Below are positions 21,701 through 53,732 of a stretch of DNA of 64,000 bases, in pieces (positions within the stretch are counted from its first letter, which is position 1; each line of letters opens with the position of its first letter). The notes beneath the pieces are model-generated. The model was not told the origin of the DNA and did no database searches. It worked only from the letters and a program-made list of their open reading frames with translations. The stretch lies in IMG/VR virus record IMGVR_UViG_3300042691_031247; one strand, 5' to 3'. Source of the stretch: a virus (Duplodnaviria; Caudoviricetes). The translations under genes were made by a program, and so were the position numbers.

Positions 21701-21987
21701 TCGCCCATGTTGTGCTGGTAGTAGCGCAGCATGGCGTCGTCAACATAAAGCTTGACGTAAGGAAGATCGACAACAGAGCCGGGCAGACGTTGCGGCCACG
21801 TGTAGCACGTATCGTTAAGACGATCGTACTGACCGAGAAGGCTGAACCGCTTCTCGTCCGTGTTGCTATAGCGGTGAAGAATGCCGTGCGGACCAGCGAT
21901 GTGGGCGCGCAGCGGTTCCGTGATCTCCGTGGGGACGATACGGAACTCTTGGAAAACGAGTACTTGTGGTTTTACGTAGCTCGACAT
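18751..21987 (-). CDS. contractile tail sheath protein
   Basis: 1078 aa; N-terminal YVKPQVLVFQEF; C-terminal sheath domain (YLAAALAG...EEMIRRNVDSMSY...IEIVLDLTVPAPLNNIELHL); followed by the tube gene. Confidence 0.85.
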   Translation of the reverse strand: MSSYVKPQVLVFQEFRIVPTEITEPLRAHIAGPHGILHRYSNTDEKRFSLLGQYDRLNDTCYTWPQRLPGSVVDLPYVKLYVDDAMLRYYQHNMGESDTTITAVPGKTNWVQSSTLSFKSNGAAYPRSSVFFDRDVQLGDVVQLRTVSADNDCIETVLETYVTGFASDLVPSRILPATADVNNQDSYTAESANGVDVTVTQIEGVDNAVAVTVLGAQDEGANDYDGLVSGAVEEEYYVEVIKSTIAGCNAARLRVVSGTGTDDQAEIQPNDFDDNDGVTFIGTRGLSVRFTTTGLDNFVVGQKWKFDVKQTYEKVKAVSDADGVYQTEESVNGVQGAVDILGKYAGTKNDTYVIECTKGGTWAQLPEITVRTVKGLDFSGPTEVVGDGAGGNAISVAIGTNGVKVRFLGATDQEDNFAVAGLRKGDKWYITVNSSKAGPVRQLILRDDLPTVLLTQDGAPVDKVGPVSITNAGSGYGAAPTVTFSAPTGNLVQARTAVGYAVLGSIQGENDDMVVGVVVTDRGAGYTSAPTVTLSAPPSGPGAVTATATCQLISGEDMDLKLFIKDNIQISKNRIGFAPMTNFWYEDTQICVQEGIVAYHPEWTSAGAEQPLPVISGKVYVEYREWLSELADQVNSISDVADLDQIKGQLDPDNPLKWGVYKALSNSNGTVVKYTAVADPEKYDQEGRSLGVDMDKWVQVLERIKGRDDMYNLVPMTFDRRIQNLWAAHIGGESNEYANNWKAGFFALKAVPVVKVVGEGVNIEGVLGETVDDPVLATLSDDPNATNTQYTKLTVTSGNGYFITNDVRPGDIVRYNYSVDGFGEEQYEEYVVDQVISESTLLLYSGADAAVTVPQRVEVWHNRNRNEIVEDVAQQGGSLSNRRVCAVWPDQVGEAGTIQPGYYLAAALAGLVSGVVPHQPLTNVEVAGFDDFSRSYKYLNETQLNRMAEAGVWIVTEDKDGTPHTRHALTTDNLDLNRREEMIRRNVDSMSYLFYRRLKPFIGRTNAQPGMVRRLRYEVTAIIDFLKGNGNTEELGSQLIDGAIRKLQIHPLLKDRIEIVLDLTVPAPLNNIELHLVV

Positions 21988-24284: not shown

Positions 24285-25277
24285 TCAATAACGAATCCGA
24301 ATCGCGTCGGTGTAGGCCGAGTACTTATATGTCGAAGAAACCTCGCCGTAGCCGCCCTCTAAGTTGATGCTGGCTTTCGTCGCGCGCACCCATTCGCGAT
24401 ACGCCTGCCACCGAGCCTGACCCGCACGCTCATAGCTAGCTTCTTTATTCTGGTCGTTTACCGCCAGTCCCGCAGCCGAGTAGTCAAACTGATTGCGCCG
24501 GAACTGCTCCGCCACCATCATGAACAGGTTGGCGCAGATACCTTCCAGCCAGTGATATCTAAATGGAAACGACTGTGTGTTGTATACGGCGTCGATCGGC
24601 GGAGGCACTTCATTCCAGTACATAACTGGGCGCGCAATAGCTAGGGCAATCTCCGCGTCGTCAAACATTAAGCTATCGAGCAGAAAGCTTTCGCCCGGGG
24701 CCGAGTCGCGCAGGTGTAAGCGGATCTCAGCGATACTCGGAGGCCCGCCCGGCTGATTTACGCTCGAAAACGTGCTGCGGGCGATTACCACCGAGAACGT
24801 GTTCGAGAAGATCACGCAGGGTTGATTGCTGGTCTGCGCCGGGATGCTCACTAGCGCCATCTCGCCGTAGTACACGCCGGGAACACTGGTGGCGTTACTG
24901 GAAAGCGCGACAGACACCTTGCCGGTTTCTGGCTCGACAATTGTGGCCTGAACCTCGACCGGCTCGTTCTGGTTGCCTAGCGACAGCTGCTCTTTTAACC
25001 GCAGCACGACTTTAAAATCTTGCGCATTGGTGCAGGCGGTCAGGCTCACTGGGCGGCCTTCGCGGTCGTGCATCGTCCACTCAATCGTGGCGCAGTGACC
25101 CTGCGTGAGCGTAATGGCGCGCATGCGTGTTAACAGCGGCTGGCCGTTAACACCGGAAATCGGCGCGCTGATGACGTTCTGCCCGATACACGAAACCGGC
25201 GTAATGGCTTGGCCGTTTGTGTTGCCGTTGCAGCACGGAACAATGGGATGCTCAGCGGGTGTGGCGATAACGACCAT
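24285..25277 (-). CDS. putative head-tail adaptor protein
   Basis: 330 aa; Ig/BppU-like N-terminal half and helical adaptor-like C-terminal half (IAEIRLHLRDSAP...FDDAEIALAI); downstream of the capsid genes. Confidence 0.5.
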   Translation of the reverse strand: MVVIATPAEHPIVPCCNGNTNGQAITPVSCIGQNVISAPISGVNGQPLLTRMRAITLTQGHCATIEWTMHDREGRPVSLTACTNAQDFKVVLRLKEQLSLGNQNEPVEVQATIVEPETGKVSVALSSNATSVPGVYYGEMALVSIPAQTSNQPCVIFSNTFSVVIARSTFSSVNQPGGPPSIAEIRLHLRDSAPGESFLLDSLMFDDAEIALAIARPVMYWNEVPPPIDAVYNTQSFPFRYHWLEGICANLFMMVAEQFRRNQFDYSAAGLAVNDQNKEASYERAGQARWQAYREWVRATKASINLEGGYGEVSSTYKYSAYTDAIRIRY

Positions 25278-26139: not shown

Positions 26140-27066
26140 TCACTTGAAGTCAACGCGAGCCAGACCGTTGGTGTGGCCGAACGAGCCACCCGAAGTCTGG
26201 TAAGCGAAGTACTCAAGCATGTAAGCCTCACGACGGATGTACATCGTGGTGGGCTCCAGCTCGTAGTTCTTGCCGATGAACTTCGGCGAGGCGAACATGA
26301 ACATGGCGTCATCGGGGACAAGATCGCGCTTGATCGTAACGATCCAGCGGCAGTTGAGGAAGTTAGTCTCCGCCCAACCGTTCTTGATGATGTCCTGCGA
26401 GAAGTCGCCACCCATCTCGTCACGGCCGAACTTGAGGAGTTCCTTGATCGTGATGTTATTCACGAGGCAGGTTTCAACCTCAAAGTGCGACGGCGTCCGG
26501 GGCATGACCTTCAGCGCGTCGACAAGGGTCTCACGCGTGATGCCGCCCGAGATCTCTTCGTACTGCACAGCGCCGCTGGCGACGTTGGCAACACCCGGAG
26601 TCGGGAGCACGGCGTTGAAGGCGGCAATAAACTTGCCGTCCTCTTCAGCCAGCATGTCCTTGATCATGTTGTCGCTGAGGACCTGACGGATGTCGATCAC
26701 GTACGTACGCAGCTCGTCGACGTCCTTCACAGCGCGGGGCGACACGATCCGGTCAAACATGACGCGGTAGCGCGGGCCACGGATGTAGAAGTTAATCGGG
26801 AGCGTCGCAAACGGGAGCGACACAGCCGCCGGGGAATCGGGCTCCTTGTCCACCACCTTGACGGGCTTGTCAGTGTCAACCTGACGGTCAAGCTCGTCGT
26901 TGGTGATGGTCAGCGGCGGCATAATCCGCCGGTAGAACCCGTCTTCACGCATCTTGGTGCGCGTGAAGTCGTTAACCGCGTCGATGGCCTGCTTCTGCAT
27001 GCCGGGGGTATCGAGCTGCTCAAAAAGCGTTTCGTTGAGCAGTTGGATCTCTTGCTGAGTGGGCAT
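26140..27066 (-). CDS. major capsid protein (probable HK97 fold)
   Basis: Start reassigned to MPTQQ (GGAGG SD); 308 aa; pattern FYRRIMPP...VSPRAVKDVDEL...IKDMLAEEDGKF fits HK97-type MCPs; position after protease, scaffold and decoration genes; strong codon bias. Confidence 0.75.
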   Translation of the reverse strand: MPTQQEIQLLNETLFEQLDTPGMQKQAIDAVNDFTRTKMREDGFYRRIMPPLTITNDELDRQVDTDKPVKVVDKEPDSPAAVSLPFATLPINFYIRGPRYRVMFDRIVSPRAVKDVDELRTYVIDIRQVLSDNMIKDMLAEEDGKFIAAFNAVLPTPGVANVASGAVQYEEISGGITRETLVDALKVMPRTPSHFEVETCLVNNITIKELLKFGRDEMGGDFSQDIIKNGWAETNFLNCRWIVTIKRDLVPDDAMFMFASPKFIGKNYELEPTTMYIRREAYMLEYFAYQTSGGSFGHTNGLARVDFK

Positions 27067-27105
27067 TTTGGGAACCTCCATGTTCCTTAATTAGTTAGGG
27101 ATAGG

Positions 27106-29568: not shown

Positions 29569-31026
29569 TCATGTGACATAATTTTGCATTACACAGTGGT
29601 TTGCTGTCAACCAATTGTTTCCATATTTCTCGCAGATGGCGGCGTAAGCAGCGATCTTATACAACGCGTAATGTTGCGCAAGAGCTGTTTCTGCTTTTCC
29701 ACTCGCTTGCTTGTCGGACGGAAACTCAACTGCCCGGGCGTTACGAAGCGCGGCTAAGTAAGCACGCTTCTCAACACTGACGGGTAATACGCTATGTGTG
29801 TGTGCTACCTTTTCAGCCCACACGCGCACGTTTTGCGGCGCCGCGTCAGCTGGAAAGTATACGTTATTCTCAAGCAACGTGACGACATCTGCGTCGTTCG
29901 CTAACTTTGAAAACACGTTAGGCAGCGCATACGCAACTGCACTAACAAGTGTGGCGTTAGCTGACTTAACTGTCAACGCTAAAAAATCTCGCAGCGGCAA
30001 GATTACTCCAGCGTCGGCTAGTCCGCGTAACACCTCAGACATTTTAACAGAAGGAGCGTTATTTGCATCAATAGCCGGTTGTACTTCGCCGGCGCTGGCA
30101 AGTGCTGTCTGCGCCCAGTTACCACCCGCGCCTGCATCCTTCTCCGCCTGCGCAAGCTGTGTTAACGCCTCTAGCTGCAGCTGAACACGGGCGGCAGGTG
30201 TGCGCCCTAAGTCGAACCCAAGCGGCGCGGTAATACCCAGCTGTTCGGCTAGTTCGGCGCCGGAAACACAGCTATTTGACGCGGCTTTCTGCAGCTGGCC
30301 GGATACGTAAGCAATGCGGTCTGCCGGGCGAAACACGTGGCTGATATCAAAAAACGTCGGGTTGGGGTTGTCGGCGTGGAGTACGTGGCCGTCTTCCAGT
30401 ACCCGCCCCATATTGTGCTTTAACCCGCCCGCCTTGCAGTGGCCGCCGTTTTCTACAGAGTCGCAGTACTCGGCGCGGGTCTTGGCCGTGTTACCGCAGG
30501 ACGAGCACTTGTCGAACGGGATCTTACATGCCATCGACACGGCGATCTCTTTGTCGTTGGCCAGCTTTTCCAGCTCTTTGTCTGCAATCAGGCCGCCGTT
30601 CCGGTCAGCCGCCTCTTTCGAGCCGTTTAGCGCCACGACCAGCTCGATACGTTTCATGGGCTCGTGGTAGGCGCTGGCCTTTACGATGCCGAAACTTTTA
30701 GCGGGGTTCTTGTTGGCGTGGTCGCGATAGAAGCGGGCAAACTTCTCGAACGTCTGATGGTAGTTCCGACAGCAGTCGCGAGTAAAGCCGTCGCCGTTAC
30801 GGTTCGGGCCGTAATCTTCTGTGGCGCCGATCGCGATCATGTGAACCGGCACTTCGTCTTTGGCAAACTTGATATTTTCAAGCTTGTGTGCAAACTCGGC
30901 ACCGGCGCGCTTTACAAGTTCCTGCTTGTCTACGCCGATGATCCCGCGGCTAGATACTTTGATAAGCGCAGCGACTGGCTCACTAAAGTCTTGAGCGTGC
31001 GGCTGGATGACCTTAATCATGCTCAT
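29569..31026 (-). CDS. prohead maturation serine protease
   Basis: PNRNGDGF, YRDHAN (His), AVSMACK (Ser), a Cys-rich insert (CSSC...YC...HC) and FFDISHVFRPADRIA, consistent with HK97/herpes-type prohead proteases. Confidence 0.75.
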   Translation of the reverse strand: MSMIKVIQPHAQDFSEPVAALIKVSSRGIIGVDKQELVKRAGAEFAHKLENIKFAKDEVPVHMIAIGATEDYGPNRNGDGFTRDCCRNYHQTFEKFARFYRDHANKNPAKSFGIVKASAYHEPMKRIELVVALNGSKEAADRNGGLIADKELEKLANDKEIAVSMACKIPFDKCSSCGNTAKTRAEYCDSVENGGHCKAGGLKHNMGRVLEDGHVLHADNPNPTFFDISHVFRPADRIAYVSGQLQKAASNSCVSGAELAEQLGITAPLGFDLGRTPAARVQLQLEALTQLAQAEKDAGAGGNWAQTALASAGEVQPAIDANNAPSVKMSEVLRGLADAGVILPLRDFLALTVKSANATLVSAVAYALPNVFSKLANDADVVTLLENNVYFPADAAPQNVRVWAEKVAHTHSVLPVSVEKRAYLAALRNARAVEFPSDKQASGKAETALAQHYALYKIAAYAAICEKYGNNWLTANHCVMQNYVT

Positions 31027-34711: not shown

Positions 34712-37093
34712 TTACGCGTTAGCGATGGCGCCAAGATCAATATCCTGCGCGGCTTCTTCGGGATACGGCTCGATGGTCTTTTGCTTGAGGAACAGAATGA
34801 CGTCGCCAAGCATTTCAAATGCGTTGCGCAGCGAGTCTTCCAGTTCCGGCATGTCGGCTTTACCGTAACGTTCGGCAAACCGGTCACCGTGCCAGTAGAA
34901 CATGAACAGGATGCGGCCCAACTTGTCGAGGCCCTTGGTTAGTTCGCCCATGTACCGGTCGACGAGCGAGTCGTCGCGCACGGCGCGCAGCATGGCGCCC
35001 ACCATCGCGGTGTCGAACACTTCGCGCTGGCCGCTTTGCGCGGCGTCGATCACGGAGCGCACGTCCCGCTGGTCGAGGAGCGTGTTCGGGTTGTAAACGC
35101 TGCGGTCGGTTTGACTGGCACTCATACCCGGTACTTGCACCGCGGTATCAATGCCGAGCTGCGTTGGGATACTTGTACCCATGATACTCTCACCGCCCAT
35201 CACGGGGCCCGGATCGGTCGGAGCGGAGGGTGCGCCGTTGATCATCATCGGGCCGCCGTACGGATCAGCATACTTAACGCGGCACTCAAACTTGCGCTTG
35301 GCGGCCGCTTGTTTCAGGATCTCGCGAGCAGCTTGCTCGCGCAGACCGTGGTGCTCCACCAGCGTAACGAGCGCCTTGATGGGGCTCAGGTTAGCCTCTT
35401 TGTTAATCGTTACCGACGAGCCGTTGTGATAAACAGTCAGAGCAGCGGTCTTTTGCATGAGCGCCAACTGGGCGTCAACAAGGTTGCCGGGCATCAGGGC
35501 CGGCGGATCACTCTCACCACAACCACATGCGCCCTGATCTTCCGCGATCTCGTCATCATCTTCGCCTTTGCTCACCTTGAGCAGCTTGAAACCTTCCGGC
35601 ACAAAGATGTCGCCCATGCTCGCGCGCAGGCTGGCACCTTTCTTACCGTTGAGGTGAATACGGACACCGTCGCGCCACTTGTCGTAGTTCAGCGGGTCGG
35701 TATAGCAGCTGCCGCAAATGCTGCCCTTGGGCGGATACTTCGAGTGATCCTCAAGGTGCACTTCATAAACAGTGCTGCCGTTGCTGTCGCCGTATTCTTT
35801 GATCACGCGGAACGGCGCTGTTGTGTCGCCGCGCTTGCTGAGCGCAATGTAGCGGGCGTCTTTACTCGGGACGCTGTTGGCTTCCGGCAGGCCGTTAAAC
35901 CACGTATCAAACTCTTCGCCCTCGATCCGGGCCAGCGCAAAGACTTGGTCGGCGCGTGTATTGAGCCAGTTGCGCGCACCGTCAACGCGCACGACCGTGA
36001 TGAAGTTTTCACGCTTAGCGGCGCCTTGCGGATGTACAGCCACGTAGCAGCGCTCAATGTTGCCCGGCTTGACCAAAATTTCATACAAACCGCTTTCGGT
36101 CGGATTGAACAGCTTCTTTTCGACCTGAATGTGATACGGGATCGAGACGTTGTCGCGGTCACGCTCGTCTTGAATCAGCACGCCGTCGCGCAGCAGCTTT
36201 TCTTGATCGTCTTCGCTGTAACCAACGGGCGCCTTGGTCTGCACCGTGACGTCGTATGTGATAATTGTCAGGCCCTTAGCGGCGGCCGGCTCTTTGGGAG
36301 CCTCAGACAGCACACTGGCAATCTTTGTGTTTGCGGCAACTTCGCGCGCAGAGGCTTCAGCAATAGCCTGCTTGACGATATCTAAACCGTGAAACTCGTC
36401 GACGGCGGCGGCTAGTTGCGGCGCGTGTTTGCACGTGTTAATAAGCGTGCCAATCACTTCGCGCCCGGCCTGCTTCAAAAACGTCTGCAGGTCTAGCGCT
36501 TCGCCCATCTCCTTAAACGCCTGCGCTGTGTTTAACGTAGCGCTCTTGGCGAGAGCCGGCATCGCAGCCGTCATCATCTCTTTGAGTGTGGGCTGCGCAG
36601 AGCCAAACTTAGCCGGGCTGCGCGAAAGCTGCGTAAAGTCGGGCTGACGTTGGCCCATGCCCGACAGGTTGCGCTGTACGCCGCTACCCAGAATGTTGGG
36701 CTTGCGGTTGATCAGGTAGTTAATCCAGTTTTCCTTAAGCGGTACGAACATGTCCTGATTTTTGATATACAGGAGTTCGTGGCCTTTGAGGTCGCCGTTG
36801 AGGAAGAACACCGGCGCATACAGCCAGTTAGAGCCGACCTTGAACGCAAAAACACCAACCGCCTTGGTGTTTTCCCGGTTGCGGTCGAGCAGCTGGAAAC
36901 CAATTTCGTGGTCGAGTAGCTTGGGCGCTGAATCGCGCAGGTAGGCGTGAGCCAGATTGCTGAACGACTGCTCGAAGGAGGTGTCGTCGCCTTTACCGCC
37001 TAAATCGGCGTACTTGGTCTGGGTGCGGTCATACGACTGCATCACCTTCAGCCAATGCTTAACAGACGACTCTTTCGCTTTTTTGTTATACAC
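34712..37093 (-). CDS. large hypothetical head-region protein
   Basis: Start reassigned to GTG at 37093 (CATGGAGG SD); ~793 aa; multiple K-x-A motifs; no family recognised. Confidence 0.7.
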   Translation of the reverse strand: MYNKKAKESSVKHWLKVMQSYDRTQTKYADLGGKGDDTSFEQSFSNLAHAYLRDSAPKLLDHEIGFQLLDRNRENTKAVGVFAFKVGSNWLYAPVFFLNGDLKGHELLYIKNQDMFVPLKENWINYLINRKPNILGSGVQRNLSGMGQRQPDFTQLSRSPAKFGSAQPTLKEMMTAAMPALAKSATLNTAQAFKEMGEALDLQTFLKQAGREVIGTLINTCKHAPQLAAAVDEFHGLDIVKQAIAEASAREVAANTKIASVLSEAPKEPAAAKGLTIITYDVTVQTKAPVGYSEDDQEKLLRDGVLIQDERDRDNVSIPYHIQVEKKLFNPTESGLYEILVKPGNIERCYVAVHPQGAAKRENFITVVRVDGARNWLNTRADQVFALARIEGEEFDTWFNGLPEANSVPSKDARYIALSKRGDTTAPFRVIKEYGDSNGSTVYEVHLEDHSKYPPKGSICGSCYTDPLNYDKWRDGVRIHLNGKKGASLRASMGDIFVPEGFKLLKVSKGEDDDEIAEDQGACGCGESDPPALMPGNLVDAQLALMQKTAALTVYHNGSSVTINKEANLSPIKALVTLVEHHGLREQAAREILKQAAAKRKFECRVKYADPYGGPMMINGAPSAPTDPGPVMGGESIMGTSIPTQLGIDTAVQVPGMSASQTDRSVYNPNTLLDQRDVRSVIDAAQSGQREVFDTAMVGAMLRAVRDDSLVDRYMGELTKGLDKLGRILFMFYWHGDRFAERYGKADMPELEDSLRNAFEMLGDVILFLKQKTIEPYPEEAAQDIDLGAIANA

Positions 37094-37174
37094 GGCCAGC
37101 CTCCATGCTGCGCTCAAAATTAGACACAGTATTAATTTACTGCGTCGAAGTCTCTATATCCTACAAAAACAGGC

Positions 37175-39055
37175 TCACGGCTTCCACCCGCTTGTTGTGC
37201 CTGTTACGCCGAACTGCTCGCCTTGGGCTAGAGCGGGCACATAACTGCTGCCCGCGGTATCGCTACTTAGGCCGCGTTGCACGCTATTCATAAGCCCTTT
37301 TTCTTGATACGAGCCCAGCATGCGGGTCATCCAGTCGGGGTCATTTGAGATATTCGCCATACCTCGCACCATTTCGGGCTGGAACGGCGGTGGTTCTTTG
37401 TGGGCTTGAATTGTCTTCACGCCGTATTTATTCAAATTGGTCAGCACGTTTTTACCGATCTTTGTGCCAATTGAATAGTGCAATACCGGTTTTTCAAGGT
37501 AATGCCCGGTTAATGTGTTAGGCGCGGCTGATACGCTACCTTCACGCGGCGTCCAATTACGTTCAATTGCTGAGTAGGGCACTACATCGTCTGGCGCATA
37601 ATCGCCGTACTCGTCATTCAAACGCACGTGATTAACAAGACCGCGCGCAAGTAGCTCGATGTTCCGTCGGTGGGCTGTAATGCCGCTATTGCCCATGACC
37701 TGCCGCATCGCCTGCACAAAGTAACGGCGGCCTTCTCCTACCCCTTTGTGCCGGACAATTTCAGCTGGATTTGGCATACCGTCGGATATGACGTCGCCGG
37801 CTTCAAGCTCGTCGCCTTTTTTAACAGCAAGCTTTCGCTCGGTCGGAACGTAGTGATCCTGCCCGTTAATCTGCACGTAATAACCGCCCTGCGGCGCTGG
37901 CCGAACTTCTTGTACTCGCCCGTCAAGCTGCGAATGCGCTGCGCCGTCTGGATATTTTTTCGGGACCTGTACCAGCGCGTTAAGCGCTTTAAAGCCAGAA
38001 ATCGCGCCCGCGCCACCAACGCCGCCCGAGTGCTTCGAGCTGATCTGGCTTTGCGTAACCGGCTCGGACAGCGCCTGTGCGGCGGTAATGCCTACGTAAT
38101 CGCCGATGGGCGGTAGGCGCCCCTTCTCCCGGTAACCAACGTCTTTGGCGTAAACGCCGCCATCGCCCGGGCCGCCGACAATCGGACTGCGGACTAAGAT
38201 ATCTTTAGCGCCGCTTTCTTTCAGGTCTCGCAAGATCTTGGGCGTCAGAATTGTATTGCGTTTATACGGCCCGACAGCGCGAGCGAGTAACGCACCTTCG
38301 TTGTCTGGATCGTCTACGTCGGTGGGGTAGCCGCGCTCTTCCGCGGTCATGCGCCGCTCTTCATCGTCGTTATCATCGTCATCTGCCGTAACGAGCAGTC
38401 GGTGCGTCATCTGCGCAAGCTGTTTACCGTAGAACCCCGCGTCGGCGGTGGCCGTCTTCAGATCGATAACGCCCTTGCGGGTACCGAACGCGCCGGCAAA
38501 GTATTCAACCGGGCGCAAACCTTGGCTGTAGCCGCGCAACACCGGAATTGGAATCGGGTCGCCGCGGTGGTCGAGATACTGCATGTCAGCGCCAAGAATC
38601 GAGTTTAACTGAAACTTGTTACCGACGCCGGCGCCAGCAATTTGATGCACCAGCGGATTATCTTGACCTTCCGCTTCTTTGTACACTTTTTCGAGAAGTT
38701 CTTGCTGCGCTGCTTGCGCAAGTTCGAGGAGCTTGATGTTGCGCTGTTTTTCGTCAAGCCGGCGATCGGCAAAGATGTCGCGCATCTGATTTTGCACACG
38801 CAGTTGCACGTGACGTGCCGCAAGCGTCGGGCGAATGTCTTTAAGCCCGAACGATAAGCCGTTTGTCGTATACCCGGCGTCGCGGCCGATGTCGTGAAGC
38901 CGCTTCATGACTTCGCGGTATTTTTCTGGATGCGTTTTGGCTAGCTCAGTCGCGACACCGGACATTGTCTTTTTCGTCAACACACGATCGTAGTCGCGCA
39001 TCTCGGGCGGCAACGCTTCGTTAATCAGGAGTTGGCCGAGCGTTGTCTTCAGCAT
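37175..39055 (-). CDS. rpoC: RNA polymerase beta' subunit, C-terminal half (bridge helix, trigger loop)
   Basis: KTTLGQLLINEALP; GYSQGLRPVEYFAGAFGTRKGVIDLKTATADAGFYGKQL (bridge helix); GITAAQALSEPVTQSQISSKHSGGV (trigger loop); these align by eye with bacterial RpoC. Confidence 0.9.
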   Translation of the reverse strand: MLKTTLGQLLINEALPPEMRDYDRVLTKKTMSGVATELAKTHPEKYREVMKRLHDIGRDAGYTTNGLSFGLKDIRPTLAARHVQLRVQNQMRDIFADRRLDEKQRNIKLLELAQAAQQELLEKVYKEAEGQDNPLVHQIAGAGVGNKFQLNSILGADMQYLDHRGDPIPIPVLRGYSQGLRPVEYFAGAFGTRKGVIDLKTATADAGFYGKQLAQMTHRLLVTADDDDNDDEERRMTAEERGYPTDVDDPDNEGALLARAVGPYKRNTILTPKILRDLKESGAKDILVRSPIVGGPGDGGVYAKDVGYREKGRLPPIGDYVGITAAQALSEPVTQSQISSKHSGGVGGAGAISGFKALNALVQVPKKYPDGAAHSQLDGRVQEVRPAPQGGYYVQINGQDHYVPTERKLAVKKGDELEAGDVISDGMPNPAEIVRHKGVGEGRRYFVQAMRQVMGNSGITAHRRNIELLARGLVNHVRLNDEYGDYAPDDVVPYSAIERNWTPREGSVSAAPNTLTGHYLEKPVLHYSIGTKIGKNVLTNLNKYGVKTIQAHKEPPPFQPEMVRGMANISNDPDWMTRMLGSYQEKGLMNSVQRGLSSDTAGSSYVPALAQGEQFGVTGTTSGWKP

Positions 39056-39056
39056 G

Positions 39057-39305
39057 TCACGGCGTCCAGACGATGTTTTGCAACGATTTCGGCTTGAAGT
39101 CGGTTACAACAACTGTTTTATTGATACCCAGCGCGCGTAACATTGGATGAAAATCTTTTTCACCCACGGTTGAATAAACAACCGCCTCGTCGACTTGAAT
39201 GGCGACGAATAGCGGGTTACCTAGATCGTCCTCGACAACGACGCTGTGCGATTTCTGCTCAGCGGGTTGAAGATTGTGCTGCGTTTTAACCAGCATTGTC
39301 CGCAA
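39057..39305 (-). CDS. hypothetical protein between the RNAP genes
   Basis: 82-aa ORF coupled to both neighbours. Confidence 0.6.
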   Translation of the reverse strand: MRTMLVKTQHNLQPAEQKSHSVVVEDDLGNPLFVAIQVDEAVVYSTVGEKDFHPMLRALGINKTVVVTDFKPKSLQNIVWTP

Positions 39306-40014
39306 TACTCCGAATCATGGCGGCGATAGCATTTGCTTTGATCTGCATTGCCGTGGGCGCATTCGGATTCGAGTAGCTGGGGCCGAACGGCCGGCCGATT
39401 GACGACGCAGACTTTTCAGCGCGGTCCCACCACGCCGCCTTAGACGGATCACCCTCTGGCGGTGCGGCGTTCGGCGGCATCGGGCCGCCCGGGGGCATCG
39501 GACCACCCGGCGGTTGCATACCGGCCTGCGCGTTGGGATCTTGCGCGGGAGGCGCCATCGGGCCGCCGGGCAGCGCGGTTTCAGCCGGCGGGGCGCCGGT
39601 TGTTCCGGGCGGGAGCACAAGTGACTCTGGCGGAACTTGCACACCCATCGCGTTCATAATGGCCGTGAGCTGCTGCTGCATGTTGTACAAGCGATAGTCG
39701 AGCATCTGCATCATCTGCTCGGGCTTTAGTTTTTGCTGCGTGCCTGCAGGGGCTGCGCCCGGAGCGGCGGGTGCGGCGGGCGCTGCGGGAGGAGCAGCGG
39801 GCGGCGCCATACCCATAGCCGCAGGATCCACTGGCGGTGCAGCTGCTGCAGCAACAGCAGACGGATCGGCCGGCGGTACAGCCCCCATGGCGGCTGGGTC
39901 AACCGGCGGAGCACCACCAGCAGCAGCGGGATCCACCGCCGCTCCGGGCACTAATGCGGATTTTTCAAAGCGCGCCTTCGCCAGCGCAATGAGTTCGGGG
40001 TTTACCGTGAACAT
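39286..40014 (-). CDS. Pro/Ala-rich low-complexity protein between the RNAP genes
   Basis: 242 aa; CATGGAGG SD; PPVDPAA repeats around a short helical core (QMMQMLDYRLYNMQQQLTAIM). Confidence 0.7.
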   Translation of the reverse strand: MFTVNPELIALAKARFEKSALVPGAAVDPAAAGGAPPVDPAAMGAVPPADPSAVAAAAAPPVDPAAMGMAPPAAPPAAPAAPAAPGAAPAGTQQKLKPEQMMQMLDYRLYNMQQQLTAIMNAMGVQVPPESLVLPPGTTGAPPAETALPGGPMAPPAQDPNAQAGMQPPGGPMPPGGPMPPNAAPPEGDPSKAAWWDRAEKSASSIGRPFGPSYSNPNAPTAMQIKANAIAAMIRSIADNAG

Positions 40015-40034
40015 ACAGCCTCCATGTTTAACGA

Positions 40035-43000
40035 TTACGTATTATCTTCCACAATATGAACCGGGGTGTCCACCTCTATTTCGCCGCGCCGGTACGCCTG
40101 CATGGCATCCTGCTTGCTGCGAAACACGCGTGGTTTAGCTTTTTTACTGATTCGACTGGACGCTAAGTATAACCCAGTCTGGTAGTCTTTGTTTGGGACG
40201 TAGTGCGCCTTGAACGTCGAAGCTGCAAACAGGTTCTTACTCGGCAGCATCTTTTCCACGGCTTCTTTAGCGGCGTCTTCGGTACTTGGGACGTGATACT
40301 GCATCGCGTCGCCGTCGAAGTCAGCGCCGAACCCCTTCGTGATTACGGGGTTTACTTCCATGACTTTGTTCTTAGTTAACTTGGGGTAAAACGCCATCAT
40401 GCCGTAACGGTGAAGCACGGGCGCGCGGTTAATAACAATAGGCCGCGACGACATCTGCCGATCTAGCTCGGCGCCAGCTTCTTTCGTCTTGTCTTCCACG
40501 GCCTGCATCGCCTGCATGCGCGGAAGACCCCTGCGAACAAGACCGCGCACAACGAACGGCTTGTAAATATCCCACGCTTTCTCTTCCGGCAACGCAACCT
40601 CGTCCATGTCGAGATCGGGATTCGGTGTAATGACCGCGCGCCCCACGAGGTCGACCGTGGAGCTAAGAAGCTTACGCTGCACGGTGCCGTACTTTGGCGA
40701 GTTACCGAACACGTGCCGCAGAAAACCTTTCACATTGCGCTCAACGTTTTTCGGCTGCTGCGGCTCACCCAGTCCAGTGACAGCCTTCATCGAGTCATAC
40801 ACGCTCAGGCGTTCGTCGCCGTAATCGGCCAGCGCGCCAGACGCCTCTTTCAGTGTGTCGTTCGCATCAAGCAGTTCTTTGTACAGATAGTTTGCGTCAG
40901 CGACGAGCGGCAGCTTCTTACTGCCCATCGTGCTCACGGGGCGGAAGAGTGGCGGCAAGACGGGGACTTTACTAATCATCCAGTCTTTGGGGTGCACGCC
41001 GGTTGTTTCCGCGCTCTTTAAGAACCCCAACCGGCGCACGGCAGCGTCGCGAAGCGTCTTGCGCCCGGATTTAATATCTAAACGCGCCTGCTCGATAGCC
41101 TTTGGTAGGTTAATTCGTTCAAGCGCGGCCTTGATCGCCGTGGGCCCTGTTTTGTCGCCCAGCTGTTCGCGACCAGCCAGCACGCCGCGGAACTGCTTTT
41201 CCGTCATCCCCAGTACGCGTCGAATCGGGTCTTCCATGACCGGATTCGGCAGCGGCTCGTGCAGCGTGATCTTGCTCCACCTGTTACCGCCGTGGCCGCC
41301 CGTCAAAGCCTCATCAAATAAACCGCCGGCAATAGGCTTGAGGCGCCCCTTCCAGTCAACGGTCTCAGAGCTTTTCAATTCACGCGGACCGGCCAGCTCG
41401 TCGATGTCTTTGTCGGTCATGGCCATGAGGTTCGACCGCGTGCCTTTGCGCACAACGTTAATACCAGACGCCCTAAGCTGCCCGACGAACTTCTCGTATA
41501 CGTGTGGCACCTTGGGTAGCGGCGGAGTGTAGCCGGCCATGAACTGCGACCAGTATTCGGGATTTGCTTGGCCGCGCACCATCTTGGCGTCGCGAATAAC
41601 CTTACCGGCGCCGTGCGAAAGCAGCGCGCCAAGATCCAGCATGCCGACGCGCTTGGCGCCTTCGCTGCCGCCCTTCGCCGGAGTGCCTTCGGCTGTATAT
41701 GCACCCATCGACCGGCCCTGCGCTTTTGATTCGCTGGTATGGTGCAGCTTCATGAAAAACCGGCTGCCGGTCAGCACACCGCCGATTTTCCGCCCGGTTT
41801 CTGCGTCGATGACGTCTTCGGTATCGGACAGCCCGTGCTTTGCCAGTTCTTTCTGCGCAAACTCAATGAGGTCGTTTTTGTTATCAAAGTCCTTGAGCTT
41901 GTACGGCGAGCCGGTCTTTGCTGCGACCTTGCCTAGTGCGGCTTCAATCACCTGCGCCGGGTTAATACGGCTGATCAGACCCAGCGGCGAGACGAGCACT
42001 TCAAAAGGATTGCCGTCGCGGTCTTTGGGCATCTGGTCGTCAGGTACGATCTCTGCGACGACGCCCTTGTCGCCAAAGCGCCCGGTGAGCTTGTCGCCAA
42101 CGTCCATGGGCGCTTGGTTTTTAACGACAACGCTCACACCCTTCTTGGTGTGCATAACGTCGGTCACGATACCCGGCGCATGATGCTCCCACGTGATTGT
42201 GTCGTTTGTAAAGTTACCAGCACGCCCACGATGCACTTTGCCGTACACCGTGTCTTTCTTTTTGGCCACGAGCACGAGCGGGTCACCAAACTTGACCTCA
42301 GTACCTTTTTTAATCGCGCCGTCGTCGTCAAAGTTGTCAAGATACTTTTTGTCGTACTCAGTCGGGAACAAACTCACGAACGCCTTCTTGCCAACGTGAG
42401 TGTTGTCGTCCCACTCGGCTTCGTGCTGATACATGTGCTCAGACGTTAGCCGCTTGGATGCGGATTCAGAGATAACTACCGCATCTTCGTAGTTCTTGCC
42501 GCGGAACGGCAGATAGGCTGTACGCAGATTCAAGCCGAGCGCTGCGCTGCCGTTTTGATCTGTAAAGTTCGACCGGGCGAGCAGTTGTCCGGGCTCTACC
42601 GTGTCGCCGGGCTTCACAATCGGCGTCTGGTGTAAGAACGTCTTACGGTTGTACGGCATTTCGTTATACAAATCGATCGTCTTCTTATTACCATCTTTGT
42701 CGCGCAGTACGATGCCGTCAGGTGTGACATCGACGACTTGCGCGCGTTCGGTAGCCCGGGTGGCGCCAAGCTTTTCGCCCATCTCGTCTTCGTGCGACAT
42801 GCTCTCGTCATCGGCCTTGGCGGATTGCAGCAACGGCGCCTCGGCGTTTACTAGCGGGAGCGCTTGCGTAAACATACGGCTACCCATGATCACGCGGTGG
42901 CCTTTGATCATGGACTTAATCGGCACCATGTTGGATAACGTCGAAAACGTTGAATCCATGTTCGGCAGGCTGAACTGCGCCTCTTTACGCGGAACATACT

Positions 43001-44438
43001 TGAGCTTGCCGTTGACGAGCGCTGCCACCACGGGAAGTCCGTTATCTTCTTCGCCGGGAAACACGAGCGGCGTATCGGCCAGCTCTTGCGGCGTCTTGTA
43101 CACCTTATCGCCGGTTTTCATATCAACAACCGGCGTATACACCTTGCCGTCGGAGCCCTTCATAGCGCCGCGGGCAAAGCGCATGTCAACACCCACCTTG
43201 CCGGATTCTGGCGTGCGAAGATAGTCGATAAACCCAAGGTGGCTGGGCTGCACAGAACGTGACTCGGCAGGCACGGCGTCCAGCGAGCCAATGCCGCCTT
43301 CGCCCATACGGGTCACACGCGTCTGGTGGTCAAAGATCTCCGCAGGATTAATTTCTTCTAAACTCGACCCCAGACCGCTGCCAATAAGCGCAGCTGAGAT
43401 TGCCTTGTCGAATACGCCCGACGGAATGTGATCAATTGACTTCTTCGCCGTAGCTTTCCAGAGCAGCTTGTTAAGCGATTGGCGGTCTTTGGTAAAACGC
43501 TCGGCAATGAGGTCCTCCGGGCCGACGACGGACTGATACACCATGTTGTCTCGGTCGTCGCTCTCGGCCTCGCGGCGATTCACTGCGATTAATTTCTTAG
43601 TGATCGCCAGAATCGTCTCCGGCGTCATGTTCTTGTATTCAGAACCCAGTGTGCGCCGGGTGACTTCCGGGTCGAGTTCGGTCTTGGCAAACTCGGCCGC
43701 GATCGCCTGCGCTTTGGCAATAGCGTCTGCGCCGGCAACTGGTTTGTTTACAAGGCGGGCGTAGATCTTGTCCATCGTGCCAGCATCGCCCTTCTCCATG
43801 TTGACGGCGGTGATCTCATTGCCCCACGCTTTGCGGATGTCCTGATCTGACACGCCCATGGACTTGAGCAGCGGCATGAGCGGGATCTGCGCCTGACCAA
43901 TGCTGATTTTGAACACGCCGGTTTTGGGGTCGAGGAAGTACCGGTGCGAACGGCCCTTACCCGGTAGCGTGTTTACGTGCGCCTCAATCTCGCCGTTGTC
44001 TTTCTCGCGGGTAAACACGCCGGGGCGCAACCGCATCTGGTGCGCAAGGGTGTACTCGACGCCGCCGTTAACGAACGTGCCCGAGTCGGTGAGATACGGC
44101 ACGTGGGCGATCGTGGCGCGGCGCTGGCCGACAGGCTGCCCGGTTTTGTTATCTGTAAGCGTCCACGTACCTTGCAGCCGGCGGGCAAGTGTCCCTCTGG
44201 AAAGGACAGCTTTCTTCTGATCTGACCTTGTGAAGCGCTCAGGTCCCGAATACCCGACGTCTTGCAGCTGCAACGTATACAGGTCATTCTGCAGCGGCTT
44301 GAGCCCCTGCGCGCTCGTAAGCGCCTGATTAAAAATGTTATCCCGCATCACGCCAACGTCGCCGAACGTGCGCATCGTGGGCGCGACCGGCGCGGGTGTC
44401 ATCGGCGATTTTAAGTCGGGCAGTTCAGGGGTCGGCAT
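40035..44438 (-). CDS. rpoBC: RNA polymerase beta subunit fused to the N-terminal (catalytic) half of beta'
   Basis: Beta motifs VPYLTDSGTFV, TPESGKVG, GKNYEDAVVIS, GDKLTGRFGDKGVV, FMKLHH; then beta' motifs DWMISKVPVLPPLFRP, VDLVGRAVI, NRAPVLHR and catalytic GADFDGDAM. Confidence 0.93.
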   Translation of the reverse strand: MPTPELPDLKSPMTPAPVAPTMRTFGDVGVMRDNIFNQALTSAQGLKPLQNDLYTLQLQDVGYSGPERFTRSDQKKAVLSRGTLARRLQGTWTLTDNKTGQPVGQRRATIAHVPYLTDSGTFVNGGVEYTLAHQMRLRPGVFTREKDNGEIEAHVNTLPGKGRSHRYFLDPKTGVFKISIGQAQIPLMPLLKSMGVSDQDIRKAWGNEITAVNMEKGDAGTMDKIYARLVNKPVAGADAIAKAQAIAAEFAKTELDPEVTRRTLGSEYKNMTPETILAITKKLIAVNRREAESDDRDNMVYQSVVGPEDLIAERFTKDRQSLNKLLWKATAKKSIDHIPSGVFDKAISAALIGSGLGSSLEEINPAEIFDHQTRVTRMGEGGIGSLDAVPAESRSVQPSHLGFIDYLRTPESGKVGVDMRFARGAMKGSDGKVYTPVVDMKTGDKVYKTPQELADTPLVFPGEEDNGLPVVAALVNGKLKYVPRKEAQFSLPNMDSTFSTLSNMVPIKSMIKGHRVIMGSRMFTQALPLVNAEAPLLQSAKADDESMSHEDEMGEKLGATRATERAQVVDVTPDGIVLRDKDGNKKTIDLYNEMPYNRKTFLHQTPIVKPGDTVEPGQLLARSNFTDQNGSAALGLNLRTAYLPFRGKNYEDAVVISESASKRLTSEHMYQHEAEWDDNTHVGKKAFVSLFPTEYDKKYLDNFDDDGAIKKGTEVKFGDPLVLVAKKKDTVYGKVHRGRAGNFTNDTITWEHHAPGIVTDVMHTKKGVSVVVKNQAPMDVGDKLTGRFGDKGVVAEIVPDDQMPKDRDGNPFEVLVSPLGLISRINPAQVIEAALGKVAAKTGSPYKLKDFDNKNDLIEFAQKELAKHGLSDTEDVIDAETGRKIGGVLTGSRFFMKLHHTSESKAQGRSMGAYTAEGTPAKGGSEGAKRVGMLDLGALLSHGAGKVIRDAKMVRGQANPEYWSQFMAGYTPPLPKVPHVYEKFVGQLRASGINVVRKGTRSNLMAMTDKDIDELAGPRELKSSETVDWKGRLKPIAGGLFDEALTGGHGGNRWSKITLHEPLPNPVMEDPIRRVLGMTEKQFRGVLAGREQLGDKTGPTAIKAALERINLPKAIEQARLDIKSGRKTLRDAAVRRLGFLKSAETTGVHPKDWMISKVPVLPPLFRPVSTMGSKKLPLVADANYLYKELLDANDTLKEASGALADYGDERLSVYDSMKAVTGLGEPQQPKNVERNVKGFLRHVFGNSPKYGTVQRKLLSSTVDLVGRAVITPNPDLDMDEVALPEEKAWDIYKPFVVRGLVRRGLPRMQAMQAVEDKTKEAGAELDRQMSSRPIVINRAPVLHRYGMMAFYPKLTKNKVMEVNPVITKGFGADFDGDAMQYHVPSTEDAAKEAVEKMLPSKNLFAASTFKAHYVPNKDYQTGLYLASSRISKKAKPRVFRSKQDAMQAYRRGEIEVDTPVHIVEDNT

Positions 44439-49179: not shown

Positions 49180-50007
49180 TCAGGTTTGCGGCACAAGTAC
49201 ATACGGACGACCGTTAATTACAAGTGTGCCGTTTATCTGCAGCCCGGCATCTTTCGTAATAGGATATGCCGTAGTGCGCTTGCCATATAACTTAATTATT
49301 TCGGCAATGTCGCCGTTTTGCGGCTTGGTGACGTTCGGGTCGTAATACGGGGCCATGAGGTTGCCGTTGGCGAGGTGCGGAAGACCGAGCGCATGACCCA
49401 GCTCGTGGCAAATCACGGCCACAGCCATGTTGAAGCTCCAGTCTTCCGCTTCATCAAACATCTGATCGAGCTGGATATTCTCAGCGACACCGCACGGCAG
49501 TTCGCTCCACGCGAGAGTGCCGCCTTTGTTATCTAAACCGTTTTTCTTGCCGACACCCGAGCGCGCATAAATGTTGGCTTTCTTGTGCGTGTCGACTCGC
49601 GTCGGATCAATCGCGCACACTTCGGCCCACTGCGAGAAGGCGATGTCGTACGCTTCGGCAACCTGTGAGTTCGATAGGCCGGGCAACCGGATCTCGTGGT
49701 AGTACGAGATGTTCGGCATCGGCCACTTGCACGGGTCGCCGCCGGGAGCCGTGATATTAAAATCAGGCAGCCCGCAGCGGCGGCGATTAATCCGGTGTGC
49801 GGTCGTGGGGCCAACGGTGCCAGTCGGATTCAGGCCGTTGAACTCTTGAAACGCCCGGACTGCCTTCTGCAGTTCGGCACCCTTGATCTTCTTGACCTGC
49901 GCCAGTGTTTTATCGCCGAAATACCCCAGCGCGTGAAGGCGCCGAAGAATTTCACTGACGGGGAGAACGTGCGGTTCAGGCGGGTGGTGGGCTGGCTTCC
50001 GTGCCAT
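49180..50007 (-). CDS. matrixin (M10) zinc metalloprotease with PG-binding-like prodomain
   Basis: AVRAFQEFNGLNPTG (PGBD-like), RRCGLPD (cysteine switch), HELGHALGLPH (zinc motif), LMAPYY (Met-turn). Confidence 0.88.
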   Translation of the reverse strand: MARKPAHHPPEPHVLPVSEILRRLHALGYFGDKTLAQVKKIKGAELQKAVRAFQEFNGLNPTGTVGPTTAHRINRRRCGLPDFNITAPGGDPCKWPMPNISYYHEIRLPGLSNSQVAEAYDIAFSQWAEVCAIDPTRVDTHKKANIYARSGVGKKNGLDNKGGTLAWSELPCGVAENIQLDQMFDEAEDWSFNMAVAVICHELGHALGLPHLANGNLMAPYYDPNVTKPQNGDIAEIIKLYGKRTTAYPITKDAGLQINGTLVINGRPYVLVPQT

Positions 50008-51880: not shown

Positions 51881-52153
51881 TTACCGGTTGAGCGTCAGAA
51901 TAAATTTTACAAACACCAGCCCCCACGCGAGCACGCCGCTGATAGCAAAAAAAACAATCACGGCGCTCAGGCTGACGAGTTTGCCGAGCTTTTGAATCTG
52001 AATGTCTTTCAACAAGCGCCACGCCTTGAGGTAATCGATCGCGCCCGGTTGGTGCGGCGGTTCCGGCGTGGGTTCCGGGGTCGGCTCTGGCGTCGCGGGC
52101 TTCTTCTTGCGCCCCAGTAGCTCATTCAGCCTGTCGAGCAGCGGATTAGCCAT
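51881..52153 (-). CDS. small membrane protein
   Basis: Start at MANPLL; PEPT repeats; C-terminal TM helix. Confidence 0.55.
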   Translation of the reverse strand: MANPLLDRLNELLGRKKKPATPEPTPEPTPEPPHQPGAIDYLKAWRLLKDIQIQKLGKLVSLSAVIVFFAISGVLAWGLVFVKFILTLNR

Positions 52154-53732
52154 GTTTTTTGCCCCAGTTCTGGATGGTGTCAAAGACATCATTGCCGTAC
52201 AGCTGCGTAGCCTTGTCGAACATATTCATCTGTGGCAGTGTTCCGGTCGCGGCTGCTTGCGCCATTTGATATCTATACTGCGGATCAAGCATCGAGCGGT
52301 ACAGATGTGACTTCTGCCGCGCGGCCAAGATGAAGTCACCGCGTTGCTTTGCTTTTAACAGATGGTCAGTGACGTTAGCGAACACCGGTTTGTTGTGGTC
52401 GTACACGATCGGCGTGCGAAAGTTCAGCAGGTTACGAAACTGCTGCGCGTACACACTGTTCTCGGCCGCTTTGATCTGCGAACCGACAACGGCTGCCGGC
52501 GCATGAAACCGAAACTTCGTCGGCGTGTGCGTGACGCCCTTGTACTTCGGCTTCGGATCGTCGACGTGCCAGTCTTGCGGTGATTGCGCGATTAATCGCC
52601 GCAGGATCTCGTGCTTGCGGTCGTATTCGCGGCGATCTGAGTGCGTTTTCGCCGCACGTAGCTCGTCGAGAATGTTGGGCTTCTTGGGTGCGGGCTCTTT
52701 TTCGGCGTCTTTTTCGATTACTTTGACTTTTTCGTAATAGGCGGGGTCTTCGGACAGATGATCTTTGGCAATTTCTTTGGCGACTTGATCATTGTTCGTG
52801 TGTTCGTGCTCATGCTGCGCTCCTTCGGCTAATGCTTTCTGAGAAATTTCCCGATCGGGAACATTGTCGGCTTTTCCACCCTGTAATAGGTCGTTCTTTC
52901 CCGAGCGGGAAAGATTTTCTTCCCGATCGGGTGTGTTGTCCCGTGCAGGCATATCGCTGGCGGCTGTTTTATGCGTTGCGGCGCAATAGCCGCTTTTTTT
53001 ACACACGCACGTCGGCGGGCAAGTGCGGGCGCCGGAGCAGTTACAGTCGTAAGTCGTGTCGTCAGCCGGTGCGCTGGCGGCTTTGAGTTCTCCCCGACTG
53101 ATGGGGTTACTGAACCTATGCTCTTCCGTCGTTTCGGCAGGGGTTTCGTAACCCTTTGACTTACCGTTGTCGAGCAGGACGCCTTTACGTCTGGCAGCGA
53201 CCGTAATGTGAAACGGGTGGTCGTCATTGGGGAGCGCCGACAGCCCGTAGCTTTTGCGCAGCGCCGAAAGTCCCGGGCTGCTGACCTGAATAGCCCAGAC
53301 CTTGCTTACGCCGTCGACATTCTTGACGTCTATCTCTTTCAGGCCGCCCAGCGTGTAGCCGAACATGTGCCCGCGCTCGTTGATCTTGTCAGCGCCGATA
53401 GATGCTACTTCAGCCGCGGTAAGGACCGATATATGCGCATTTACAAGATCGCCCTTAACGTTTGGAACGTTAAACACACCAGCCGTCGGTAATTCAGCAC
53501 CGGGCTCGGTTAGGGCGTCAAACACGCCCCGAACCAGCGCGTTCGGTACAGATAACAAAAGCCAGCCCGATTTGGCGAGATACAGCCGGCCGGCGAGCGG
53601 ATAACTTGTGGCCGCTTGCTTGTTGCCGCCGCGATAAAGCCAGCCGAGAGCGTTACCAGCGGCGTAGGCGGGGTGCTCGCGGAAGTACTGCTGGTCCCAA
53701 GCGAGCGGGTCGAGTGCTGAGAGGCTGTCCAT
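52146..53732 (-). CDS. multidomain protein with 2H phosphoesterase-like domain
   Basis: Two H-x-[S/T]-h motifs (AHISVL, FHITVA) about 75 aa apart; then a Cys-rich CNC...C...CVC...YC segment, HEHEHT...EIAKDHLSEDPAYY, and further small domains. Confidence 0.65.
   Translation of the reverse strand: MDSLSALDPLAWDQQYFREHPAYAAGNALGWLYRGGNKQAATSYPLAGRLYLAKSGWLLLSVPNALVRGVFDALTEPGAELPTAGVFNVPNVKGDLVNAHISVLTAAEVASIGADKINERGHMFGYTLGGLKEIDVKNVDGVSKVWAIQVSSPGLSALRKSYGLSALPNDDHPFHITVAARRKGVLLDNGKSKGYETPAETTEEHRFSNPISRGELKAASAPADDTTYDCNCSGARTCPPTCVCKKSGYCAATHKTAASDMPARDNTPDREENLSRSGKNDLLQGGKADNVPDREISQKALAEGAQHEHEHTNNDQVAKEIAKDHLSEDPAYYEKVKVIEKDAEKEPAPKKPNILDELRAAKTHSDRREYDRKHEILRRLIAQSPQDWHVDDPKPKYKGVTHTPTKFRFHAPAAVVGSQIKAAENSVYAQQFRNLLNFRTPIVYDHNKPVFANVTDHLLKAKQRGDFILAARQKSHLYRSMLDPQYRYQMAQAAATGTLPQMNMFDKATQLYGNDVFDTIQNWGKKHG

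Follow-up and report, generated by a model that had tools for sequence, protein, structure and literature searches.

RNA polymerase genes of the window

We analysed the genes for a multisubunit RNA polymerase (RNAP) in a tailed virus (Duplodnaviria; Caudoviricetes) available as IMG/VR record IMGVR_UViG_3300042691_031247 (198,101 bp, rated 97% complete). The window, i.e. the whole stretch of DNA under analysis, comprises 64,000 nucleotides (nt) of this record, and window coordinates equal genome coordinates minus 27205. The RNAP is encoded by two genes on the minus strand. A single open reading frame (ORF) at 40035-44438 codes for a 1467-residue protein, in which the beta subunit is fused to the N-terminal part of beta' (beta::beta'-N). 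The second gene, at 37175-39055, codes for a 626-residue protein that corresponds to the remainder of beta' (beta'-C), with recognisable bridge helix, trigger loop and region H motifs in its translation. Two small ORFs separate them. The original prediction had proposed this fusion, the split and the two intervening ORFs, and all three are borne out by the ORFs, the Pfam signatures and structure mapping. There is hardly any doubt that a beta::beta'-N fusion plus a separate beta'-C is the true architecture.

The 1467-residue protein harbours the Pfam domains Rpb2_2, Rpb2_3 and Rpb2_6 of beta, followed by Rpb1_1 and Rpb1_2 of the N-terminal region of beta'. The Rpb2_6 match (E = 2e-50) indicates that the beta double-psi barrel and its flanking conserved regions are present. 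In alignments to solved structures, residues 46-1018 of the fusion protein correspond to residues 40-1076 of cyanobacterial beta, the beta part being full length, while residues 1020-1047 and 1070-1463 correspond to residues 27-53 and 142-540 of Bacillus subtilis beta', respectively. Beta occupies approximately residues 1-1000, and the beta' portion spans from beta' residue ~15 to E. coli position ~550. An alignment of relatives showed that the C-terminus of beta (...SGINV) joins the N-terminal segment of beta' directly, without a linker. We mapped this junction to residues ~996-1010 (nt ~41409-41453, minus strand), in agreement with the linker-free junction at ~41420-41470 predicted from the sequence. 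Both proteins also proved easy to align with bacterial RpoB and RpoC, as had been claimed, with phmmer E values of 2e-68 for beta and 1e-47 for beta'.

The catalytic motif GADFDGD is found at 40308-40328 on the minus strand (residues 1371-1377), and the fusion chain extends ~90 residues beyond it. The triad of Mg-binding aspartates is intact (DFDGD, residues 1373-1377), and the invariant Asn residue preceding ADFDGD is replaced with Gly. Among 112 close relatives, the motif reads GADFDGD in 90, NADFDGD in 18 and AADFDGD in 2 (in the remaining 2, the regular expression picked up another site). It is AADYDGD instead in two more remote phages described below, Arash, which infects Salmonella, and Vibrio phage D69. 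The Asn residue of NADFDGD touches the substrate ribose in bacterial RNAP, and because it is replaced with Gly here, the sugar discrimination of the variant enzyme may be relaxed.

The N-terminal zinc-binding domain of beta' (CxC...CxxC, ~32 residues), which in bacteria contributes to contacts with promoter DNA and nascent RNA, is gone from the fusion protein, with a short Gly-rich loop in its stead. Alignment and PDB mapping placed the deletion site at 41280-41300 (minus strand). This domain is missing throughout the clade of fused enzymes (see below), while its four Cys residues are kept in the unfused beta' subunits of Cobetia phage Carin-5, Vibrio phage Va2 and Rhizobium phage RHph_Y65. 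The second zinc site, in beta'-C, is lost as well; its four Cys residues are retained in Arash, in D69 and in L043, a related locus (IMGVR_UViG_3300017919_000002). Altogether, the two RNAP chains contain no Cys in 2093 residues.

Long antisense ORFs within the fusion gene (40606-44220, plus strand) have tblastn matches in relatives because the sense strand is strongly conserved, and these matches are no evidence of genes.

A conserved break in beta'

The 626-residue protein carries the Rpb1_5 domain (Pfam, E = 7e-24), and its residues 1-495 align with residues 663-1184 of Mycobacterium tuberculosis beta' of known structure. We aligned the chain ends of the split proteins with the L043 chain and with Salmonella beta'. 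In the window, another related locus (L038), Arash and D69, the end of the fusion protein, ...PV(H/R/K)I, corresponds to ...ARVKV of Salmonella beta' (residue 550), and beta'-C starts at a TT(L/V)G motif that corresponds to LKDTTVGR (residue 569). The 18-residue hairpin found between these two positions in the bacterial protein is missing from the split forms. The break is therefore at the same residue in all four, and the L043 chain runs uninterrupted across it. Both catalytic barrels thus reside on one chain, and the bridge helix, the trigger loop and the C-terminal clamp on the other.

We considered whether the two beta' halves might be rejoined at the protein or RNA level, by a split intein, an intron or a mobile insertion, to yield a full beta::beta' chain. 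Inteins do occur in the RNAP genes of relatives, after DFDGD in L043 and within beta'-C in L010. Moreover, the sister lineage formed by L043 and L051 has an uninterrupted beta::beta' chain, and the content between the halves is variable, with two ORFs in the window, three in L038, two unrelated ones in D69 and nine genes in Arash. However, the fusion protein is homologous to beta' to within ~4 residues of its C-terminus, and beta'-C from its residue 1-3 onwards, so that split-intein halves would have no space. In Arash, the two halves lie 6.6 kb apart with opposite-strand genes in between, and peptides detected by mass spectrometry (MS) were assigned to gp206 and gp216, which are annotated as distinct proteins. 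Rejoining thus appears highly improbable, and two chains remain the preferred reading.

Two specific candidates were rejected in the course of this analysis. A split intein is at odds with the extension of beta' homology to the very ends of both proteins, and the intein of L043 does not occupy the split site, as the alignment puts it directly after DFDGD, ~85 residues upstream. This intein is of the LAGLIDADG type (RNAP gene at L043 7887-15686), and that of L010 is a LAGLIDADG/Hint intein (RNAP gene at L010 13329-16388). The unsplit beta::beta' chain is encoded in L043 and at 2860-11469 in L051.

Conservation of the layout in metagenomes

A scan of IMG/VR yielded 39 loci, of which ~35 have an identical gene order, with 52-98% identity. 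The shared order consists of the fusion gene (1456-1494 residues), two small ORFs, the beta'-C gene (624-662 residues) and an ORF of ~800 residues. In a large protein collection, we found 2339 homologues at E<=1e-10, with contigs of up to 212 kb among those listed, and the top 120 of these homologues harbour PF00562 and PF00623 within one protein. Clusters at 50% identity with this layout number more than 150, and the best 150 representatives are all fused, with 46-63% identity over the junction region. Most matches of these representatives end at their own C-terminus, indicating that the beta' break is conserved too. Their lengths, from 1442 to 3350 residues, suggest frequent insertions.

Near-identical DNA is present in 20 sequencing runs from 15 studies, nearly all of freshwater, lake or river origin. 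Contigs from three independent runs covering 38800-41800 differ from the window by substitutions only, with zero indels, and one contig (X5 record 12) that covers 39907-41800, including the junction, shows no difference. This indel check was performed on contigs, the raw reads of run X22 having no coverage of the stretch. A frameshift or a misassembly at the junction or the split, which the original prediction had named as grounds for dismissing it, is thus contradicted by independent, indel-free contigs. Hundreds of independent assemblies have the same layout and the catalytic motifs are all intact, so that the probability of a decaying pseudogene, or of an artefact due to assembly or frameshift, is close to nil.

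Some records deserve comment. L025 and L037 (7980-13424) harbour an unexplained insert of ~350 residues in beta. L051 (DAOQAF010000001.1), a phage-like contig of 204 kb that encodes a fused RNAP, is filed in a 'Bacteroidales' metagenome-assembled genome (MAG). A 'Nitrosopumilus' contig has an rpoBC of the Pirellulaceae type, and several contigs of 'Pseudomonadales/Gammaproteobacteria' MAGs group with the candidate phyla radiation (CPR) in the beta' tree described below. The records flagged as probably mis-binned or mislabelled are L051, L088, L052-L054, L057, L062, L092 and L102. Finally, many entries of the phage collection are actually bacterial contigs with the host rpoB-rpoC genes, including Salmonella, Acinetobacter 'phage MD-2021a' and Staphylococcus, Listeria and Enterococcus 'phage' clones.

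Comparison with other multisubunit RNAPs

The same architecture is present in several deposited phage genomes. Arash gp206 (1525 residues) and gp216 (606 residues) have the same fusion, the same split residue and the zinc domain deletion, and gp10 of this phage is a sigma factor. Vibrio phages D69, D148 and D181 (e.g. VPHD69_0261 and 0264) have the same fusion, with beta' broken at the identical residue, and likewise lack the N-terminal zinc domain and encode a sigma factor. Arash and D69 share with the window a gp218-like gene near that of beta'-C, a collinear downstream structural module and membership of a single beta' clade. The Arash enzyme is ~32% identical to that of the window. Arash also differs by the portal gene being adjacent and by the nine genes, over 6.6 kb, that lie between the two halves. 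In the paper describing this phage, gp206 and gp216 are labelled plain beta and beta', and the fusion is passed over (PMC10585845).

L043 (2599 residues) and L051 (2869 residues) have the same beta-beta' joint and also lack the N-terminal zinc domain. Both belong to the clade of the window, but their beta' is unsplit, with an intein in L043. The rpoBC fusions of Helicobacter and Wolbachia represent an analogous joining of beta and beta', unlike the split enzyme of the window. Cellular rpoBC fusions keep alpha, omega and the zinc sites. The gamma and beta' proteins of cyanobacteria and plastids are likewise separated downstream of the barrel, at a point between the conserved regions D and E. 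However, the cyanobacterial cut is ~65 residues more C-terminal (residue 1461 of the fusion protein corresponds to gamma 557 of 626, and the fusion protein ends at approximately gamma 563 of 626), beta is unfused, and alpha, omega and the zinc sites are present.

The phiKZ/AR9 enzymes are also phage multisubunit RNAPs without alpha and omega, in which beta' is split after the catalytic barrel. These phages have separate virion and non-virion enzymes, one of which is packaged (PMC7598289). They differ from the window phage in having two enzyme sets, with beta in two to three pieces, unfused, and no sigma70 homologue; here, each barrel is present in single copy in the genome and beta is unsplit. 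They are also much more divergent, PHROG matches to the phiKZ/AR9 families having E values from 1e-28 to 1e-4, versus 1e-60 for the bacterial-like family. Reviews of jumbo-phage RNAPs cover only the multiply split, sigma-less phiKZ/AR9 type (PMC7598289, PMC7824862, PMC13282480). Membership of the crAss-like single-chain RNAPs, which are highly divergent enzymes with two barrels and no detectable COG0085/0086 match, is implausible as judged from profiles, given the strong matches of the window proteins to bacterial Pfam profiles.

The mReC phages, Carin-5, Va2 and RHph_Y65 are tailed and have genomes of ~130-210 kb. Their RNAP subunits can be aligned with bacterial ones and branch outside the cellular lineages. 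In Carin-5, a sigma gene is adjacent to the RNAP genes. Carin-5, Va2 and RHph_Y65 have unfused subunits, and the mReC contigs harbour separate genes for beta (~1144-1211 residues) and beta' (~1392-1512 residues) (Weinheimer & Aylward 2020, PMC7481178). The mReC survey filtered for two matches of >=800 residues each and for the motif NADxDGD (PMC7481178). The enzyme of the window has a fused beta, a GADFDGD motif and a beta'-C of 626 residues, and such filters would therefore miss it.

The original prediction had stated that the combination matches none of the known types. This holds with respect to the Helicobacter/Wolbachia, phiKZ/AR9 and cyanobacterial types. However, the deposited genomes of Arash, D69, D148 and D181 have this architecture, and it is very common in metagenomes. 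In the literature searched, we found no description of a partition into beta::beta'-N and beta'-C. It is apparently a large, already sequenced but undescribed architectural variant of the phage multisubunit RNAPs.

Phylogeny and origin

The best bacterial matches to beta'-N are 28-31% identical to it and come from Planctomycetota, Saccharibacteria and other CPR, Actinomycetota and Bacillota. Since a query of residues 1-1020 of the fusion protein did not retrieve the beta subunits of Va2 and RHph_Y65, we built a tree of beta' only (49 rows, 1126 columns, IQ-TREE with the LG+C20 posterior mean site frequency model, quick search, no outgroup). Its 36 bacterial rows comprise the best tblastn hits along with Salmonella and Staphylococcus. 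All 36 are found on one side of a branch with an SH-like approximate likelihood ratio test (SH-aLRT) value of 99. The eight rows of fused and split enzymes and the two of full fusions form a clade (SH-aLRT 99) with a stem of 1.1 changes per site. It consists of three subclades whose mutual order is unresolved, namely Arash with D69, L043 with L051, and the window group with L038. Carin-5, Va2 and RHph_Y65 are on very long separate branches. No bacterial phylum is nearest to the fused clade, and Arash does not branch close to Salmonella. The approximately unbiased (AU) test did not reject monophyly of the split forms (p = 0.42). Together with the identical break point, this result favours a history with a single fusion and a single split, or one in which the L043 lineage underwent re-fusion.

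An independent capture of a bacterial RNAP had been proposed for this phage. A recent version of that scenario, in which rpoB-rpoC would have been acquired from a bacterial host and rearranged later, is in line with the strong alignability of the proteins to bacterial beta and beta' and with the order of the fusion, which is that of the bacterial rpoB-rpoC genes. Nevertheless, the top bacterial matches have just 28-31% identity and are scattered over several phyla, and the fusion, the zinc-domain deletion and the split are features of the clade, pointing to a single old origin. As this clade branches on a long stem apart from every one of the 36 bacteria sampled, with Salmonella distant from the RNAP of its phage Arash, a recent capture is unlikely, and we consider an independent recent acquisition followed by rearrangement very improbable. 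The beta' tree thus does not support the proposal in its recent form.

Genomic context

The 242-residue protein (39286-40014, minus strand) is Pro/Ala-rich with a conserved central helix and has no Pfam or PHROG match. The other small ORF (39057-39305, minus strand) codes for 79-82 residues, the likely start being the ATG of MLVKTQ..., and has no Pfam match. Its AlphaFold2 model (predicted local distance difference test score, pLDDT, of 86) consists of five strands and a helix, with no meaningful structural match in the PDB using Foldseek or in a wide VIA-align search (best Z 2.8). Both ORFs recur in conserved form in L038 and every close relative, and they are unrelated to the small ORFs found at the corresponding place in D69 and Arash.

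Directly downstream of the beta'-C gene is a gene for an 801-residue protein (34712-37117, minus strand), which always comes next after beta'-C in the close relatives and L038, a clade-conserved linkage. This protein is a homologue, with weak similarity, of Arash virion protein gp218 and of D69_0266. It has no Pfam, PHROG or Atlas match, and its AlphaFold2 model (pLDDT 49) is too poor for a structure search.

Using tblastn against the Arash genome, we found the window to be collinear with the series gp206-gp216-gp218-gp222-gp226-gp233-gp236. Thus, downstream of the fusion gene (gp206, annotated as beta), the beta'-C gene (gp216, annotated as beta') and the gp218 homologue are homologues of the virion protein gp222 (29569-31026), the major capsid protein gp226 (26140-27081, minus strand; 28% identity over 309 residues, E = 2e-27) and the structural proteins gp233 (24285-25277) and gp236 (18751-21987). 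The major capsid protein gene is co-oriented with the RNAP genes, 10 kb downstream, and the structural genes form a co-oriented block with the RNAP genes at its head. The portal homologue is ~71 kb away from the RNAP genes, and the homologue of the Arash helicase gp217 is outside the window.

We searched 20 flanking ORFs with PHROGs and 10 with Pfam and obtained almost no matches, the only ones being an endolysin-like domain, a 2H phosphoesterase with DUF5661 and a sigma factor. The first two are upstream of the RNAP block, in a 275-residue protein (49180-50007, minus strand; weak endolysin-like N-terminal domain) and a 528-residue protein (52146-53732, minus strand), respectively. The RNAP genes had been described as lying between internal-protein and prohead genes. 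These labels could not be verified, as PHROGs and Pfam do not recognise the neighbours and the portal gene is so far away; the structural context is established solely by homology to the Arash virion proteins and major capsid protein.

The sigma70-family gene (5143-5985, minus strand; 280 residues, regions 2, 3 and 4) is the one such gene detected, with region 3 above the Pfam cut-off and weak matches for regions 2 and 4. It is a homologue of Arash gp10 (tblastn E = 5e-16), and the genes flanking it are homologous to Arash gp13 and gp14. Profile searches of the whole 198-kb record found neither alpha (PF01000) nor omega (PF01192), with all 14 control genomes positive, extending to the entire record the predicted absence of these genes from the window. 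Each catalytic barrel is present in single copy in the record, so that the phage has one RNAP set, and the second RNAP that might have been encoded elsewhere in the genome was not found. There was no match to T7-like RNAPs in the record either, an absence that is weakly supported as the control matched nowhere.

An exact k-mer search of intergenic regions revealed no strong promoter word. A bipartite motif, CT[AT]AAT[AT]-N13-19-[CT]ATAT[CT]T, is present in eight coding-strand copies, of which six are intergenic, versus 0.03 expected in shuffled sequences. In genome coordinates, the copies are at 147378, 112968, 105921, 105146, 104770, 100755, 99835 and 11865, outside the window, and several are preceded by a T-run and AGCTAT. 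As its geometry resembles that of sigma70-type promoters, this motif represents a candidate class of phage promoters.

Proposed mechanism and probable virion packaging

We propose that the two proteins form a two-chain phage RNAP core that is made late, probably packaged into the virion with the sigma factor and injected for early transcription, a scenario to which we assign a probability of roughly 70%. The core would consist of beta joined to beta' at the natural contact between the beta C-terminus and the beta' N-terminus, plus the remaining part of beta', and the covalent tether might stand in for the alpha2 assembly platform. Engineered and Helicobacter beta::beta' fusions are functional. 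Promoters would be recognised by the phage's own sigma70-family protein. By analogy with Arash, the holoenzyme is most likely synthesized late, enclosed in the particle and injected along with the DNA so that it can transcribe the early genes. Because the genome encodes a single RNAP, newly made enzyme would probably serve later gene classes too.

Packaging in the virion, as suggested in the original prediction, receives indirect support from the MS analysis of Arash virions and from collinearity with the Arash structural module. In Arash virions, gp206 had more spectra than any other protein (3516), with 128 unique peptides and 100% coverage, while gp216 yielded 40 peptides and 1210 spectra, and the sigma factor gp10 24 peptides and 467 spectra (PMC10585845). 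The numbers of spectra per residue are alike (~2) for gp206, gp216, gp10, the helicase gp217 and gp218 (PMC10585845), which hints at a packaged transcription complex in Arash. Given that the three genes lie in co-oriented blocks of virion genes, and by analogy with Arash, the RNAP of the window is probably packaged.

Alternatively, the fused and split RNAP might be functional without being a virion enzyme. It would then be synthesized after infection for a middle or late role only, with the host RNAP transcribing the early genes, and its detection in Arash virions would result from contamination. The Arash MS list includes replication and nucleotide-metabolism enzymes, and contamination was raised by the authors (PMC10585845). 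The single RNAP set is also compatible with that possibility, as phiKZ/AR9 have both virion and non-virion enzymes (PMC7598289), and so is the large distance between the portal homologue and the RNAP genes. On the other hand, gp206 tops the Arash spectra, with high values for gp216 and the sigma factor as well, the RNAP and sigma genes are located within co-oriented structural blocks in both phages, and the total lack of Cys and zinc sites would be unusual for a purely cytoplasmic RNAP. We therefore regard a non-virion role as rather unlikely.

Several points nevertheless weigh against a packaged, sigma-dependent enzyme. Among the 116 'virion' proteins of the Arash preparation are ribonucleotide reductases, ligases and a primase, and the authors of that work allow for carry-over of abundant proteins from infected cells (PMC10585845). 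The Arash enzyme is just ~32% identical to that of the window, for which packaging is predicted from the genes and the likeness to Arash. The pairing of the sigma factor with the RNAP core is a prediction, and the beta' zinc domain is missing from that core. No promoter class is tied to the enzyme, as the bipartite motif is outside the window and could be read by the host RNAP. Lastly, a highly divergent analogue of alpha or omega, beyond the reach of hidden Markov models, may exist among the many uncharacterised ORFs.

In its most complete form, our proposal is that of a minimal, sigma70-dependent holoenzyme of three polypeptides, dispensing with alpha and omega by virtue of the tether between the barrels, free of zinc and cysteine, carried in the capsid and injected. 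This full combination is tentative, and we rate its chances at somewhat below even.

Implications

Multisubunit RNAPs are thought to require an alpha-like platform. The phiKZ/AR9 enzymes break this rule, but they are very divergent and sigma-less. Here, the enzyme is ~30% identical to bacterial beta and beta' and lacks alpha, omega and both zinc sites, while a recognisable sigma70 partner is kept. If our reading is true, it would be the first virion RNAP to depend on sigma, and also a naturally 'alpha-less' enzyme of the bacterial type. Freshwater metagenomes are rich in this clade, which the sole systematic survey of bacterial-like phage RNAPs missed. With a cultured member available on a laboratory strain of Salmonella, phage Arash, as a model, it would offer a tractable system to address the true need for the alpha platform and the zinc domains, the packaging and injection of a sigma holoenzyme, and the reshaping of an ancient enzyme by gene fusion and fission.

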